Source: Phormidesmis sp.
GTDB taxonomy: Bacteria > Cyanobacteriota > Cyanobacteriia > Leptolyngbyales > Leptolyngbyaceae
Assembly (NCBI GenBank): GCA_965248535.1
Contig: CBDFJR010000002.1
Span: 1,088,001-1,152,000, forward strand
DNA length: 64,000 nt
Direction of reading: 5' to 3'
Shown here one piece after another: positions 40,383-55,300 of the stretch. The first letter of the stretch is position 1. Each line of letters starts with the position of its first letter. Position numbers: made by a program.

Positions 40383-43300
40383 TGATGTTGCGCTATGGAC
40401 TCAATCAACCCACTGCCGCAGACCACATTGAGCAAGCCGTTCTCACTGTCTTAGACCAAGACTATCGCACCGGGGATATCATGTCGGAGGGCAAAACCCT
40501 GGTGGGCTGTCAGGCGATGGGCGAGGCGTTGATCACAGCGCTGAATCAATAAAGACTATTTTTTCGTGCCAATTTCGATTTTTGCAATAGGATACAGTCG
40601 GAACATCAATCGAGGGGGAGTGCTGGTGGTTAACACGATCGAGCAAGCAGGTGCAGGTGTGGATGATGAACATGAAACGGCGTATCTCGATCCGGCGGTG
40701 GTGCGATCGGCGCGCCTGATCTATCAGACTTATTATGAAGTGCATCCCGAACTGACGGAGCCGCCTTTAGGGGTGGCGATCAACCGACTGACGCATCGAG
40801 GCAAACTGATTTTCACGGGCAAGGCGATTTTGCTGCCGCAGGAGTGCTTTGTGCCGTTTGAATGGATTGAGTCAGAGGCTTATTAGCCAACCTTGGGGTT
40901 GAATGACTGGTTGTGGAAGGGGTAGGGAAGATTAGAATCGTGGATTGGATGAGATCTGTTTTTGCCTGGGCCATGGGCACGGCGGTGCCATGCCCGTACG
41001 GGAGATTGAGTTTTCGTTTAATGTGCGATTTTTGGTGCTATCAATGCTCTGACTGTTGACCTCTGCCCCTCGACCCCGCATGGATTTTCTATTTGCTCTG
41101 CCCGTAGCTCTGATTGTGTTTTGGCTGGGAGCCTCGATCGGGAGCTTTCTGAACGTTGTGGTCTATCGGCTGCCTGCTGGGTTGTCGCTGCTCTATCCGC
41201 CGTCTCGCTGCCCCCATTGCCTAACTCGCCTTAGAAAACGAGAAAACGTGCCTGTGCTGGGTTGGCTGTGGCTTAAAGGGCGGTGTGGTCACTGCAAAAG
41301 CTCGATTTCGTCTCGCTATCCGCTCGTCGAAGCATCGACTGGACTGCTGTTTTTGCTGACGTTTTGGGTGTTTGGCTTCTCGATCGCCACGATCGGCTAC
41401 TGGCTCTTTTTAAGCTGGCTGCTGGCGCTGTCGTTGATTGACTTAGACACGATGACGCTGCCAAACCCGCTCACCCAGTCAGGCTTGATTTTAGGATTGG
41501 CATTTCAGGCTCTCTCAGGATTTTTGATCACTTCTAGCCTGGCAGGTGCAATTCAATATTTCGTTGCAGGCGTGATCGGCGCAGTCCTGGGAGTCTGGCT
41601 GCTCGATGCTATCTCGTTTGGAGGCACGATCGCGCTAGGGCAACCCGCAATGGGGGCAGGCGATGCCAAACTAGCGGCGATGATGGGCGCTTGGCTGGGC
41701 TGGAAACTGCTGCTGATCGGCGGATTTTTGGCCTGTGGAGCCGGAGCACTGGTAGGCGGAGGCGCGATCGCTTTGGGACTGATCAATCGCCGCCAGCCGA
41801 TCCCGTTTGGCCCGTTTTTAGCTCTAGGAGCCGCTTTGAGCCTCTTTTACGGCGAGGCGTTGCTCTCAGGCTATCTGAGGCTGTTTTTTCCTACGATTTA
41901 GCCTTTATCGTGAGAAAAGCAGTCCCAATCCTTTCGTCATCATGAATCCTATTCAGCGCGTCGCGATCGTAGGTGGCACCCACGGCAATGAGTTCACCGG
42001 AGCTTATTTAATCAAAAAGTTTGAGCAATATCCAGAGCGGGTGCAGCGATCGAGTTTTTCCACTCAAACATTACTTGCCAATCCTCAAGCGTTTGCAGAC
42101 ACTCGTCGCTATATTGATCGAGACCTAAATCGATCGTTTCTCTCTCAAGATTTGCAAAACCCAAATCTTTCTGGCTATGAAGCGCAGAGAGCCAAAGCCA
42201 TTGCTCAACAGTTAGGGATCAAGGGCAGCGCTCAAGTCGATGTCGTGCTCGATCTCCACTCGACAACTGCCAACATGGGGCTGTCTCTCTTGATGGCAAA
42301 CCGAAGCGCTGCCAGCTTGCAGCTAGCCAGCTATGTGAGTGAAGCCAATTCGCTGGTCAAGGTGTGTTTAACGCAGCCCGACTCAGCCACGGGATTGCTG
42401 CGATCGCTCTCTGAGTTAGGCGTGGTGATCGAAGTCGGCCCAGTCGCGCAGGGAGTGCTGGATGCTTACTGGTTTCAGCAGACAGAGGCTTTAATTCACA
42501 CGATTTTAGATTATTTGCACGACTGCAATCAGGGCACGGTGGCGATCGCTGATCGTCCCCTAACTTTTTATGAACCCATTGGCTCGATCGACTATCCCCG
42601 CAATAAGGCTGGCGAGATTCAGGCGATGATTCACCCTGAGTTGCAGGGCAAAGACTATCAGCCGCTCAAGCCGGGTGACCCCTTGTTTTTGAAATTGGAT
42701 GGTTCCACGATCGTCTATGAGGGCGTTTCGACGGTCTATCCCATTTTCATCAACGAAGCCGCCTATTACGAGAAAGGGATTGCGTTAACGTTAACTCACA
42801 TCTTGCACCTATCTCAGGAGGATTTATTGCGATCGGTCTGACTGAGAATGCTGCAAGATTTTAGTTAGGGAGCGTTTCCTAAACGGGGATATTGACCACT
42901 CCCTAACCTCAACTTCCTACAGTTGAATCGTCGTTTTGTTGTGCAACTCCTCTACTTGAATCAGTGCACCATTACCCAGAACAATGTTGAACTTCATTAA
43001 AGAACGTTCAACCTGATAACCAGGCAACACTCGAACAACTTGATACTCTGTGGTCAAATCACTCGTGCCATCCCACTTCAGAAACGCTAGTTGATTAGAC
43101 GCAATCTCACTCAGTTCTGAGACAAACTCTTCAATGCTGTCGCCAACATTCACGAGAATGCCAGACGGCACAAAGAGATAACGCTCTTGTAAATCTAAAG
43201 TCACACTCACTCGATAACGTTTTTCGATTGAGCAACGCAACTCAATGGTGAACGAAATCGAGCTAGGAACGATCGTCCTAACTGCCATGTTTTTTGTCCT

Positions 43301-52300: not shown

Positions 52301-55300
52301 TCTGGTTGTCCCTCAGTCAAGAGAAACGTTTTCGGCAACGCCTAGTTACAGAAACAAAACGATTTACCTTAAGTTACCTACAAAGCTATTTTCCGTTAGA
52401 ACAAAAGCCACCTAACAACGCCCATGCACACCGATCGTATAAAGGTTATTGATTGAGTCCACAAAGTCACTAGCGGCGGTTGATGGGCACCGTTAGCCTG
52501 CTTTTCACAATCGAGATGGGCAATAAAATACAAACCTTAGCTGCCATAGCGGGTATTTTCGGTGAGAAGCATCCAGATGGATAGGTTGCTTATCCCATTG
52601 GTGTCGTGGGTGCGATTGTTGGACAGGGAGACACCTACGAAGAGGCTTTATCGGATGTGAAATCTGCGATCGCTTGCTACGCAGAAGTCTTTGGCAAAGA
52701 AAGGTTAGATGATACTCCCTATATTGAGGTTTTCGTTGCTGAGGCACGAGTTGCGGTTTAATGCCGAAGTTTCCGGTTGATGGAACTATAATTCTCAATA
52801 TGACCGAACACAGTGTATGGCGAATTTCGTTAGCTCACAAAATCGCTCCGGCTTTCACTGTTAATGCCAAAGTTGAAGCGCGTTTTGTGTTTGGCTCGGC
52901 AGCATTAGGAATCTCAGATCAGTATTCAGACCTTGAGTTGGCTTTTATCTGATCACAACTCCCGTCTACTGAAGAATTACATCAACATGCTGCTCAGGCT
53001 AAACCGCATTTATCATCCCGGCTTCAAATGGACACGCTACTGGATTGAAGAAATGAACATCAAATCGCCTGAGTTTTTTGCGCGGTTGGAGCGCGTTTTT
53101 CAATCTGATGCTGCAAGTGGAACCCATGAATTGTGACAACTCTCGGAGGAAACGTTCAACCTTGTAGAGCAGCACTTGCCGCAAGTTGACTTCAAGCAGC
53201 AGCTATTAGTCATAATAAGAATTGCTGGTGAGCGATCGCCAGATCTGAGTTTCACCCGAAGCTATCAGCCGTGTAGAGATAGCCTCTAGAGGTGCCGTCG
53301 TCGAGCCAAATAATCGCGCCATCGCTTTCGAGGGTTTGGCTCTGAGAGATGCCTTGATTGATGATTCTAATTAATCGCTGTGGGCTAAAGGATTCTAGCT
53401 CGACAAAGTTTCCTTGATCGAGCCAGGTTAATTCATCGGCTGATAATGTTTGCCGTATCTCGATCGGCAGTTGTTTTGAGGCTTGAGCCGATGGGTCTGA
53501 AGACTGGACTAATAAGTGACGAGCCGATAAAATCTGGCGAGGCAACAGCCCCAAATCAATCAGTTGCACGGGGCTGTTTTGAAACCAATTAGGACTGGTC
53601 TTTAGTTGATTAATGAGGCGCATTCCTTGGGGGGTGCCGTCATGAAGCCCATAGACTTTTAGATCGGGGTTGCGCTTCAGCATGGTCATTACGGTGGTAA
53701 AAATGCTTTGCGGATAGCCTGTGATGCTGAGAACGGCACAGTTGTTTTCAAAGTGAAAGTTGTTGGCGATCAACAATTGAGCGATTTTGGCGCTATCACA
53801 CACCACCGCCCGATCGAAGCTATAAGCGCTTACGTCAGGGTCAACCAGTTGAGCAGTTTGTTCTTCGCTCGGTGGCGGCAAAAGTTTGGGAATTGCCCCA
53901 TTGATCAAAGTCCAGCGATCGAGCCAAGTTTTGAATTGAGCTTGTTCAAATAGGGGAACTTTAGCGATCGTAGCCTGCCGTTTTTTTTGCCAGATGCCGA
54001 GCACGATCGAGACCATGCCCAACAGCACAGCTAGAAAGTAGATCAGAGCAGAATGCGAGACAAGACCCCAGAAAACCCCACTAATCAGAATTAAACCCCC
54101 TAGGATTTGTAACTTTCTAGCGTTGGCTCTGCGAATGGCATAGCTAAATTGATTAGACTTGCTAAGTTGGAAAAATTGAATAATAAAGATTACATTGATC
54201 ACAACCCCAAAGATCAGATAAAGCAGGGGAATTGCCCGCGTAATTAGGGCTATCCAAACGCTGATTACAACATAGACAACCAGCAACGCAGTCCCTATTG
54301 AAGCCGATCGCGCTGTCAACCGTTTGTCTAACAGATAATAAAGCTGCTTAGGCGTAAAAAATAGTGTGCCGTCAGACGAAATATCGGCGATCGCTTTAGC
54401 AAAAAATGGGTCAGTAATCAGCAATCTTTTGTCGGTGACGGTAGTTGGCTCAAAGGCAAACGGATGGTTGCAGCTTTTGCAGCGACCTGAGTGATCAGTG
54501 CGATCTTTTAGAATATTGTCAGTTCCACACTGAATACATTTCATACCCATAAATTAAATGCTCCCAACAGTTCAAAACGGACTCGGATCAAAAATCTGAT
54601 TGTCTAGCAAAACTCGATAATCTTCTCGCTTGCGAATCAGAGAATGGTGTGTTCCTGTTAACAAAACCTCTGCGGGTCGAGGGCGATGCAGAAAATGCGA
54701 AGACATCGCATAGCCATAAGCGCCCGTGTCGAGAATGGCGATCGTGTCTCCACTATTTAACGCTGGAAGCGGACAATTGCGCCCTAAATAATCGCGAGAA
54801 TAAGTTGTGTTGCCACACACATCGGTGGAATATTGAGACGCACCTTTAGCCCAAGTGACAATCTGCCGATAGCCCCCATGCACAGACGGAACCGAGAGAT
54901 TTCCAACGGTGGTATCGACTCCAACAATTTGTTTCTCGGTTTGCCATTTGGTTGAGACAACCTGGGTCAGCAGCGTGCCACAGTGGGCGATCGCGGCCCG
55001 TCCCGGTTCAACCATCAACTCAATCTCTGGCTGAATCGCGGTTAGCTTTTGGCTCAAGGCGGCTCCAAACTCTGACCAGTTAAACGCGGCTCCGTCTGGC
55101 TGATAGGGATAGCCAAAACCGCCGCCAAAATCAAGCGATCGCCAGTCGGGGAGTTGTTGAGCAATGGCAATAACATCATCTATCACTTGAGTAAATGCTT
55201 TTGTGGCGTTCGTTCCAGTCCCGCGATAGAAGTGTAACCCCGTGATGGCCAATCCTGATTTTTTAGCAATCATCAGCGCGTCTTCAAACTCTTCTAACCG

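Follow-up and report, generated by a model that had tools for sequence, protein, structure and literature searches.

The window analysed here, 64,000 nt of contig CBDFJR010000002.1 from Phormidesmis sp. (genome G000) whose positions supply the coordinates given below, contains at 43578-52498 a genuine, ordinary and complete chromosomal integron, composed of an integron integrase gene (intI), an attI site and five attC sites, together with an adjoining module of two short ORFs, orf39 and orf123 (Table 1). The integrase was identified with a model that separates IntI from XerC/D; the XerC and XerD models both score far below their own cut-offs. As the survey's finding had placed it, intI lies between module and cassettes, and the module begins in the intI stop codon (TGA, 43578-43580), with homology among copies running from 43579. 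Aligned homology of the window copy (M02), copy M08 and the intI2 platform stops exactly at the crossover of the attI site (type A; 97-98% identity at M08 and intI2), and in three type A and seven type B platforms homology ends at the complement of G/TTRRRY (the slash marks the crossover), which points to authentic attI sites. The attC sites were located with a home-made covariance model (R1), not with IntegronFinder; such sites are defined as imperfect hairpins with R''/R' boxes (RYYYAAC ... GTTRRRY), L boxes and extrahelical bases, placed after cassette ORFs and pointing away from intI. An alignment of 17 sites yields a hairpin with 15 consensus pairs, 10 of them showing compensatory changes, and two conserved unpaired bases in the 5' arm, so that the folded structure, for which an earlier alifold test had failed, is supported. 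The last cassette, closed by attC 5, measures 2.4 kb and carries several genes (MFS-like, Coq4-like, TetR).

Table 1. Features of the integron and adjoining module, by position in the 64,000-nt window.
Feature	Position	Strand	Basis
Terminal hairpin, GTTAGGGAG ... CTCCCTAAC	42864..42907	-	Inter-copy homology ends here (alignment)
orf123, 123 aa, orphan family	42917..43288	-	pN/pS 0.165; AF2 pLDDT 86
12-bp hairpin with GAGG ribosome-binding site of orf123	43291..43326	-	MFE fold; consensus fold of 25 copies
orf39, leader ORF	43306..43425	-	Open in 17/17 copies
5' leader: two hairpins (stems conserved, loops variable) and invariant GAGGACTTCC	43426..43517	-	Fold z -2.45
Putative module promoter, TTCCAA-17-TACAAT	43524..43552	-	Read by eye; below promoter-scan threshold
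intI, integron integrase, lineage 1	43578..44543	-	TIGR02249, 466 bits (cut-off 265); Pfam Phage_integrase and SAM_4
Pc-like promoter into cassettes, TTGGGA-18-TATAAT	44527..44556	+	Consensus match alone
40-nt tandem repeat, 3.6 copies, in intI-attI gap	44615..44757		Also at M03, M08 and in relatives
attI, type A; crossover G/TT at 44935-44937 (...CTCAATC/GTTATGC)	44760..44937	+	Alignment of M02, M08 and intI2 platform
ORF-less group II intron, at R'' end of an attC	45216..45928	-	Rfam
attC 1	45917..46002	+	R1, 85.6 bits
attC 2 (GCATAAC ... GTTATGC), after antitoxin/ParE-like cassette	47061..47146	+	R1, 83.3 bits; Pfam
Second ORF-less group II intron copy, also inside an attC	48159..48870	-	Rfam; copy table
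attC 3	48860..48944	+	R1, 78.7 bits
attC 4	49914..49998	+	R1, 45.1 bits
attC 5	52411..52498	+	R1, 36.3 bits, filters off

The module is organized as a self-contained operon, with a structured leader, a leader ORF, a hairpin that hides a ribosome-binding site, a terminal hairpin that would close the unit and, probably, a promoter of its own; at the place of this putative promoter a member of a distant genus (G104, genus g74) has TTGACA-17-TATACT. Across 32 copies from five genomes the leader hardly varies, and its GAGGACTTCC motif and hairpin position are common to G104 and a second g74 species, G420. The leader ORF is constrained as nucleotides, not as protein: its pS of 0.066 against a pN of 0.053 gives no sign of protein-level selection, its nucleotides are near-invariant with no 3-base periodicity, and its first eight codons are conserved even in g74 (MIVHRRLC vs MILRQLC). 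Its stop codon lies in the loop of the 12-bp hairpin, and translation of orf39 would be expected to melt the stem that hides the orf123 ribosome-binding site. Leader ORFs of the erm type and of amino-acid operons act by translational coupling or attenuation. The arrangement here is similar in that the short upstream ORF ends in a predicted hairpin that would occlude the ribosome-binding site of the larger downstream gene, and in that constraint falls on nucleotides and not on the second half of the peptide; it differs in that there is no nameable sensed signal. The terminal-hairpin pattern GTTAGGGAG ... CTCCCTAAC matches the genome 12 times, 10 of these at module 3' ends, with a loop of 16-33 nt that is longer, about 94 nt, at M03 and M04.

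Codon-wise purifying selection on orf123 is clear: pN/pS is 0.165 at a pS of 0.318 over 120 pairs, reproducing the earlier 0.16 at 0.32 over 105 pairs. Intact paralogues number 16, where 15 had been counted, and one further copy (M11) is broken. None of the 17 family members matches Pfam at E<=10, as reported before, and searches of NCBIfam, PADLOC, PHROGs and PDB sequences likewise gave no match. We retrieved 411 homologues at E<=0.001 (413 in the survey); the 120 matches listed are at least 81% identical and 123-130 aa long (about 123 aa in the survey), and the named ones among them are again from Phormidesmis. Distant homologues share 45-50% identity and 21 invariant residues, and with divergent homologues in the alignment the fold, formerly called unpredictable, is modelled at AF2 pLDDT 86 and pTM 0.79. 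The best match of this model among known folds is unrelated (Z 4.5), and Foldseek returned none at E<=0.001. Two identities were rejected. A type II toxin-antitoxin pair formed with orf39 conflicts with the pN of 0.053 vs pS of 0.066 in orf39 and with the lack of a Pfam or PADLOC family for orf123; an IS200/IS605 Y1 HUH transposase conflicts with a single histidine (H116) that homologues do not conserve and with the absence of a Pfam match at E<=10. TnpA was absent from the fold matches, a search that by itself excludes nothing.

The strong conservation of the leader raises the alternative that RNA or DNA signals, such as an intI terminator or insulator or a regulatory RNA, are what is selected, orf123 riding along. 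The leader and orf39 codons 1-19 are indeed far more conserved than orf123 (pS 0.011 vs 0.318), and RNA-library contigs of relatives span the module. The selection on orf123 codons and the invariant residues of its distant homologues nevertheless speak against it, as does the lack of any intI to insulate at solitary copies or in the outgroup described below, and we regard this explanation as highly improbable.

Throughout the genome the module is found in 17 copies, those outside the window being 86.1-93.8% identical to the window copy by blastn, and tblastn detects two intI genes and no more, both as the survey had it. Its association of modules with arrays also held under our own covariance model: in 12 of the 17 copies the 14.5 kb upstream contain one to five attC sites, in every case on the other strand from orf123, and 24 of the 41 model sites genome-wide fall in module-upstream stretches making up 4.9% of the genome, where about two would be expected by chance. 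The remaining five copies all stand alone, although M11 has a weak downstream match and just four have no site at all; a second downstream case, at M03, dissolves because that site belongs to the M04 array. Other counts changed: attC sites number 41 by covariance model or 28 by nhmmer, not 54, and long copies with an attI end are seven, plus one interrupted by an insertion, rather than six. In these seven (attI type B) the conserved extension ends exactly at ...TAAC/, the complement of G/TTRRRY, beyond which the copies continue into seven unrelated sequences, a different first cassette in each. Judged from these junctions, the attI sites of the copies appear to be real and to have been used after copying. 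Promoter-like sites facing the cassettes were observed four times against 0.9 expected. The claim that the module is kept at every array did not survive, as it is absent from the intI2 array, from C2:1280549-1282113 and C2:2140701-2143997 (the latter retaining 145 nt of attI-B), and from nine single attC sites.

Of the 12 arrays capped by a module, 10 lack intI and show no recognisable remnant of it; the gene survives at M02, and at M13 just its final 4 nt remain. The two remaining IntI must therefore act in trans, if the sites are still active. Clusters of attC lacking an integrase are termed CALIN, for which integrase loss from complete integrons has been proposed as one origin, and for 95% of which no intI pseudogene could be recognised in the vicinity (Cury et al. 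2016, PMC4889954). At least two attC sites with no nearby intI by tblastn occur at M07 (4 sites), M09 (5), M14 (3), M17 (3), M10 (2) and M08 (2-3), all counted without IntegronFinder spacing rules. Like CALIN, these arrays have no neighbouring intI, with IntI encoded elsewhere in the genome; unlike CALIN as described in PMC4889954, where such a marker gene does not figure, at least 10 intI-less arrays here keep a recognisable attI and crossover, all with one conserved non-integrase operon at the attI end, so that descent from complete platforms can be read directly. In other respects the locus resembles sedentary chromosomal integrons, with an integron-family intI, an attI and an attC hairpin at the end of each cassette.

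The relatives extend this picture. All seven other genomes of the genus carry 4-21 matches, as the survey had reported; in G007 attC sites lie upstream of 9 of 11 modules and downstream of none. Most integron platforms of the genus include the module as a fixed component; in three of the four intI lineages it lies directly behind the integrase gene, 25-70 nt away and always oriented alike. Five different intI lesions adjoin intact modules: (i) exact loss of the ORF at M08, where the 5' UTR of intI survives as far as the ATG; (ii) about 157 nt of the intI 5' end at G001 C69 and C62; (iii) a remnant of aa 45-171 in G007; (iv) a remnant of aa 271-315 at G001 C37; and (v) a frameshift at G002 C150. 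Such relics suggest that the platforms descend from intI-bearing ones. The IntI of the genus do not group together: the closest branch to intI1, to intI2 and to the G007/G004/G001-C58 group is in each case a sister IntI from a different genus (100/99-100), and the ORFs downstream of those sister IntI do not, by eye, resemble the module. The module has therefore become linked with three or more intI lineages that are unrelated to one another, which pure co-descent does not explain without extra recombination events. Copies appear to recombine or spread within genomes, since all those of G000 fall in one clade, since M10, whose downstream flank matches that of the G007 intI locus over 5.2 kb, is 91.1% identical to its G000 paralogues and only 85.3% to its positional orthologue in G007, and two G001 modules 91.3% alike follow intI genes only 61% identical.

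Beyond the genus, G104 and G420, of another family, carry the same operon as a single, syntenic copy between a hydrolase gene on one side and an HI0933-like gene on the other, with the same leader including GAGGACTTCC, a leader ORF starting MILRQLC and an GAGGACAA ribosome site. R1 finds no attC at this locus, and the genome has no intI above cut-off; the operon is multi-copy only where tied to integrons. In a search of 81 genomes of the Phormidesmis family, matches to intI at E<=1e-40 come from 20 further genera, and 46 of the genomes score above the intI cut-off. No orf123 was found in 38 non-genus genomes sampled from this family, and the eight intI loci opened from other genera have unrelated genes downstream of intI (translations compared by eye).

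These distributions bear on the possibility that the module is a selfish element which spreads by itself and inserts at the outer ends of platforms, or spreads by gene conversion, arrays being its landing or survival places. Its copies are many, sharp-ended and closed by a fixed 3' hairpin, each of them regarded as intact and selected; it has joined several unrelated intI lineages and also occurs alone; and copies cluster by genome (all 17 in G000 form one clade, support 99/96) at positions not conserved between species, with synteny between two species at just 1 of 17 x 11 locus pairs. Against this, the module is stable, single-copy and syntenic in two g74 species. Its 123-aa product carries no signature of an HUH, DDE, serine or tyrosine recombinase, its only histidine being unconserved; terminal inverted repeats and target duplications were not seen; and the 5' ends are ragged in the manner expected if a longer platform had suffered deletions (M13 retains the final 4 nt of intI and M08 the intI 5' UTR, and extra flank is common to M05/M16 and M11/M16). 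A selfish origin thus seems improbable to us.

The survey had read orf123 as a new accessory component of the integron, acting in recombination or array expression. Its physical premise stands at most platforms of the genus; the proposed role does not follow with it. An accessory factor working mainly in cis might bind attI or folded attC so that IntI from elsewhere works, or control the cassette promoter, which faces away from the module, and the carriage of the module by three unrelated intI lineages, at a short distance and in one orientation, keeps such a role in consideration. The module stays intact where intI decays, is always divergent from the cassettes as a local regulator might be, and is under selection at every copy, as suits a protein acting where it is made; the sole module-less lineage, intI2, is 86% identical in nucleotides to another genus vs 69-75% for its flanks. 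A dedicated integron role is weakened because the operon is single-copy and integron-free in g74, because 5 of 17 copies in G000 (four intact) and 2 of 11 in G007 (both intact) stand alone, because intI2, a complete integron, and three further arrays have no module, and because the other intI-bearing genera of the family were not found to have orf123 in the genomes searched. Small proteins of known fold, such as Xis-type factors, modulate tyrosine recombinase reactions, and accessory DNA-bending and directionality proteins influence reaction or expression much as the accessory reading proposes. Those host factors are, however, encoded elsewhere, and Orf123 has no DNA-binding or recombinase signature, no fold match, no sequence match to the Xis/RDF, IHF/HU or Fis families, and structural Z scores of at most 4.5, where an absent fold match excludes no family. 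We judge an accessory role in cis possible but rather unlikely.

We favour, at a probability of about one half, the reading that the module is a linked passenger: it was copied as part of an attI-intI-module platform, from which intI was afterwards lost by repeated decay. The best explanation of its history is that the module is older than its link to integrons and was a separate, self-regulated operon. In the Phormidesmis lineage this operon would have become fixed directly behind intI; the whole platform would then have been copied to many chromosomal places and its copies kept alike by inter-copy recombination, and intI would have been lost again and again, leaving platforms of attI, promoter-like region and module. 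The leftover attI sites may keep taking up cassettes through one or two remaining IntI, and selection would keep each module copy intact for the sake of a function that belongs to the module itself, which we assume and which is not known as an integron function. Besides the several unrelated intI lineages, it weighs against the linked passenger that intI decays repeatedly and orf123 does not, since it is not obvious why a passenger working in trans should need 16 intact copies. As for the means of platform copying, no mechanism was found: neither target duplications nor a transposase were seen, and loci syntenic between two species are confined to the single pair mentioned above. On the passenger reading the module would mark how the platforms multiplied and descended, rather than being an established component of the gene-capture apparatus. 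Xanthomonas offers a parallel, its integron being fixed beside ilvD, a non-integrase gene that constantly adjoins the platform by location and is not known to take part in recombination. There, a housekeeping gene is concerned at one locus per genome, whereas the neighbour described here has been copied 17 times with the platform and follows several unrelated intI lineages.

A separate observation concerns the two introns within the array. Both score as group II with Rfam models RF02001 (127.8 bits; gathering 32), RF01998 (63.7; 35) and RF00029 (43.5; 40). Copies here are about 712 nt long and have no reverse-transcriptase ORF, unlike the group IIC-attC introns described in PMC3001079, and are assigned to the level of group II. 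They resemble those introns, as that source describes them, in lying within attC in the orientation opposite to the cassettes, an arrangement found in nine of nine intron copies here.

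The locus in the window is a complete chromosomal integron of ordinary layout, because it combines a high-scoring integrase gene (intI1), an attI site and five attC sites. The integrase scored 466 bits against the integron-integrase model TIGR02249 (cut-off 265), and upstream of its gene, read along the plus strand, a 40-nt tandem repeat is followed by the attI region and then by small-ORF cassettes, whose genes encode a ParE-like toxin and its partner, a DUF3303 protein, a DUF433/DUF5615 pair and a HicB-like protein. The attC sites were located with a covariance model derived from an alignment of 17 attC candidates from this genome; in that alignment the consensus hairpin has 15 pairs, ten of which show compensatory changes, besides two unpaired bases that are conserved. 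The end coordinate reported for the survey's finding is explained by the fifth attC site.

Features of the integron and its module, in window coordinates
Feature	Position	Strand	Basis or remark
Terminal hairpin of module	42864-42907		end of module homology
orf123	42917-43288	minus	
orf39	43306-43425	minus	
intI, 321-aa tyrosine recombinase	43578-44543	minus	TIGR02249
40-nt tandem repeat	44615-44757		3.6 copies, between attI-A and intI
Five attC sites	starts 45917, 47061, 48860, 49914, 52411		covariance model
Group II intron, first copy	45216-45928	minus	at attC R'' end
Group II intron, second copy	48159-48870	minus	at attC R'' end
Last cassette	50000-52498		2.4 kb

Several further features of the array were recorded. 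The two group II introns are identical, lack an ORF and measure ~712 nt; nine copies occur in the genome, all in one orientation relative to the cassette, eight lying no more than 14 nt from an attC site of the model and the ninth at an attC-like site matched by a regular expression only. In the last cassette, which a weaker attC site of 36.3 bits closes, three genes point in two directions: an MFS-like one that looks truncated, a Coq4-like one and one for a TetR regulator. The 40-nt tandem repeat is kept at module copies M03 and M08 and in relatives, is also listed at C5:2090616-2090717 (C2 and C5 denote contigs of this genome), and shows by far the top word depth of the stretch in metatranscriptome contigs from ice, up to 8500; it could serve to bind the integrase or belong to an abundant RNA.

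Downstream of intI1 lies the module, an operon of orf39 and orf123 with a leader and hairpins, of which blastn retrieved 17 copies from the genome (M01 to M17, M02 being that of the window) at 86.1-93.8% identity to the window copy. Homology between copies starts within the intI stop codon (window 43579) and ends at the hairpin GTTAGGGAG ... CTCCCTAAC, a pattern matched 12 times in the genome, ten of these at module ends. This terminal hairpin was considered as an attC site and dropped, as GTT/AAC occupy its outer rather than inner stem ends and the attC model has no match there. By tblastn the genome holds two intI genes only, 17 open copies of orf39, and 16 intact copies of orf123 with one broken; the paralogues are thus mostly intact, as the survey had it, in a number one higher than the 15 it claimed.

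Its central observation, a repeated module with arrays upstream in one orientation, was recovered: attC sites (one to five each) precede 12 of the 17 modules, every one on the strand opposite to orf123. Genome-wide the covariance model places 41 attC sites, against 54 attC-like sites claimed before, with 24 of them no more than 14.5 kb upstream of a module, two belonging to the second integrase gene, one downstream of M11 and 14 elsewhere. The upstream stretches make up 4.9% of the genome, so that by our own arithmetic about two sites would be expected there by chance, against the 24 found. When the loci themselves were scanned with the model, M05, M12, M13 and M16 had no upstream attC site, and M11 had a weak downstream match only. 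The relative G007 has upstream sites at nine of its 11 modules and downstream sites at none. The earlier statement that the module is kept at every array does not hold, since arrays occur without it at the second integrase gene, intI2 (three upstream sites), at C2:1280549-1282113 (two) and at C2:2140701-2143997 (three), in addition to nine single sites.

The junctions between arrays and modules have the properties expected of true attI sites, as judged from where homology stops. One type, attI-B, is a 310-nt extension upstream of the module common to seven copies (M01, M06, M07, M09, M10, M14, M15); in all seven, when aligned, it ends exactly at ...TAAC|, the complement of the crossover motif G|TTRRRY, and is followed by unrelated sequence; no intI cognate to attI-B occurs in this genome. 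The other, attI-A (...CTCAATC|GTTATGC), is common to the window, M08 and intI2 platforms at 97-98% identity and shows an equally sharp loss of homology. The attI-B extension carries four promoter-like sites facing the cassettes, versus 0.9 expected, and 145 nt of it are kept at the module-less array C2:2140701. Where six long copies had been counted, seven share the extension and M04 provides an eighth, parted from its module by a 1.28-kb insertion.

The M04 insertion (positions 13234-14545 of locus extract L004; C2:1675605-1676916) removes the -35 region of the module, has a 98% identical copy at C2:2105915-2107194 and pieces at C5:2058073-2058923, and is probably a small mobile element. M07 and M09, two copies of attI-B type, have in their arrays a common 542-nt segment with 97.8% identity (10743-11284 and 5459-5995 in the re-oriented upstream extracts of L007 and L009, which are not locus coordinates); it is a cassette that was copied from one intI-less array to the other or exchanged by the two.

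Remains of intI beside modules bear on how such arrays arose. At M08, attI-A is followed by the intI 5' UTR up to the position of the ATG, then by 34 nt and the module, the ORF being exactly absent; M13 retains the last 4 nt of intI. In the relative G001, modules on contigs C69 and C62 adjoin a 5' piece of intI of ~157 nt, and other relatives retain remnants encoding residues 45-171 (G007) or 271-315 (G001 C37), the gene in G002 C150 being frameshifted. Some forms among metatranscriptome contigs of relatives join 43568 to 44599, skipping intI. These repeated lesions argue that intI-less platforms descend from complete ones; on this evidence complete platforms multiplied, shed intI by no fewer than five different routes and so gave rise to the arrays. 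Despite the loss of intI, a different first cassette follows each attI; if their sites are still active, the intI-less arrays would have to rely on IntI supplied in trans. The origin and present activity of attC arrays without integrase (CALIN) is an open question of integron biology, and in this genus a marker operon and preserved attI crossovers make that origin readable from sequence, while the many attI sites per cell offer a natural system for testing trans-acting integrases. Our preferred reading, to which we assign a probability of about 0.5, is that the module is a selected passenger of this multiplying platform.

In a tree of module copies all 17 from this genome form one clade (99/96), the two from G001 are sisters (100/96) and ten of the 11 from G007 group together; mean identity is 89.9% within the genome versus 84.2% between it and G007. 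Of the 17 x 11 locus pairs between these two genomes a single one shares flanks, namely M10 and the G007 locus with full intI, which have 5.2 kb in common at 83%; the M10 module is nevertheless 91.1% identical to its paralogues versus 85.3% to its positional orthologue. This pattern suggests that recombination has made copies alike or that they were replaced inside each genome, and that platform positions turn over between species. When four relatives were searched for an unoccupied counterpart of the window integron, the left flank was recovered in rearranged form and the right one scarcely matched. Among the solitary copies, pairs share extra flank (M05/M16 ~60 nt upstream, M11/M16 ~20 nt downstream), a hint that segments were copied, as opposed to a precise transposition.

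The genus contains four IntI lineages, 60-73% identical to each other and not forming a clade; for intI1, for intI2 and for the group from G007, G004 and G001-C58 the sister is in each case an IntI from a different genus (100/99-100). Since the module lies 25-70 nt past the stop codon in three of the four, intI2 being the exception, it appears to have joined several unrelated intI lineages, a point favouring a functional or targeting link. Mosaicism of platforms could also have given it multiple partners, because attI-A is shared at 97% by the intI1 and intI2 platforms. The latter (attI-A plus intI2, L018:11051-12434; C2:161051-162434) matches genus g10 (genome G354) at 86% DNA identity, while in that genome the flanks are 69-75% identical and sited elsewhere; this suggests transfer of the platform between genera or unusually strong constraint. 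That the module is itself a selfish element we regard as decidedly unlikely.

The module forms an operon that is complete in itself and regulated. When 32 copies taken from five genomes are compared, the variation of orf123 follows a 3-base rhythm, and the leader and first third of orf39 are almost invariant. For orf123, pS is 0.318 and pN 0.052 (ratio 0.165, 120 pairs); for orf39 the values are 0.066 and 0.053, with pS only 0.011 over codons 1-19. These values, with the invariant leader, indicate that orf39 is kept open yet constrained as nucleotides, apparently not as protein. Its stop codon falls in the loop of a 12-bp hairpin holding the GAGG ribosome site of orf123, and ribosomes translating the leader ORF should open it. 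The z-score of the leader fold is -2.45, and a putative promoter, TTCCAA-17-TACAAT, was read by eye, below the scan threshold. An Rfam search matched nothing in the module itself. A function as RNA or signal, for which the invariant leader would speak and the codon rhythm of orf123 would not, is highly improbable. Diversifying selection on two leader loops was entertained and dropped, because the variants differ by one or two changes and recur from copy to copy, as neutral drift within a constrained leader would allow. The module, intI and the 40-nt repeats are covered by contigs of RNA libraries made from ice and mats; as these contigs derive from relatives, may include DNA and allow neither transcript starts nor levels to be read, they are a weak hint of transcription.

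Orf123 has no match in Pfam, NCBIfam, PADLOC, PHROGs or PDB sequences, and no usable one in the ESM Atlas. A word-index search retrieved 411 relatives (identity at least 81% among the 120 matches listed), and a profile search of 1.84 billion representatives gave 15 matches only, of which two are spurious repeat proteins and P0122, P0123, P0125/P0135 and P0132 are true divergent homologues at 45-50% identity; with P0122 as query no related locus was found in genome or metagenome contigs. The fold had been called unpredictable (pLDDT 33-36), but with the divergent homologues aligned AlphaFold2 reached pLDDT 86 and pTM 0.79, for a model in which three strands and a 30-residue helix are followed by a long beta-hairpin and a last strand. 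No structural match above noise came from Foldseek searches of PDB and BFVD or from a wide VIA-align search (best E 0.045-0.083, Z 4.5). A resemblance of the N-terminus VRTIVPSSI to the AbrB/MazE loop motif was set aside, as it has no profile support. Orf123 is a small, strongly conserved protein that combines a confidently predicted, unmatched fold with conserved leader-ORF control. We found no published description of the module in literature on integrons in Phormidesmis or on sedentary chromosomal integrons, cyanobacteria and CALIN, supplements aside.

The module is present in all eight genomes of the genus and in three of 401 sampled genomes of the class: this one, a congener, and G104 of another family, in which it occurs in two of 57 genomes, both of G104's own genus. 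There orf123 is single-copy, flanked by a hydrolase gene and an HI0933-like gene, and G420 of that genus is syntenic; in G104 the home-made model finds no attC match at the operon, and no intI above cut-off was detected in the genome. The G104/G420 leader has a strong promoter-like TTGACA-17-TATACT, the invariant GAGGACTTCC and a hairpin in the same place, and its ORF begins MILRQLC, with ribosome site GAGGACAA. The same operon and leader in an integron-free setting suggest that the operon is older than, and independent of, its link to integrons. Conversely, the window's family is a rich, little-described integron reservoir: intI exceeds the cut-off in 46 of 81 genomes and is matched at E<=1e-40 in 21 of 27 genera, many genomes having two or more and many copies being broken. 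In none of the 38 sampled genomes of this family outside the genus was orf123 found, and at eight intI loci of other genera the downstream genes, their translations judged by eye, are unrelated to the module.

These distributions weigh on the most consequential alternative, that Orf123 is a cis-acting accessory factor, the first non-integrase protein belonging to the integron platform, which with its new fold would act at its own attI, so that an integrase supplied by another locus could recombine or express the cassettes of a dozen intI-less "satellite" platforms; a cassette store distributed over many sites would in that case be served by one or two intI genes. Its union with several unrelated intI lineages speaks for such a role, whereas the integron-free outgroup, the solitary copies, the integrons without a module, and the consideration that any trans-acting factor needs one copy only speak against it, and we consider it doubtful. 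The survey's interpretation survives in part: most platforms of the genus physically include the module, and the arrays would have to rely on IntI in trans, while the proposed role in recombination or expression stays hypothetical. The linkage of Orf123 to three unrelated intI lineages is testable by standard recombination assays.

The HI0933-like gene that follows the operon in G104 adjoins no module in G007; the stretches concerned are L014:9207-10804 (C5:1695088-1696685 of the window's genome) and L030:9928-11687. Its orthologue in the window's genome (66% amino acid identity) lies ~300 nt past the last attC site of the M14 array, and M14 may be the ancestral locus, inverted, or the proximity may be due to chance.
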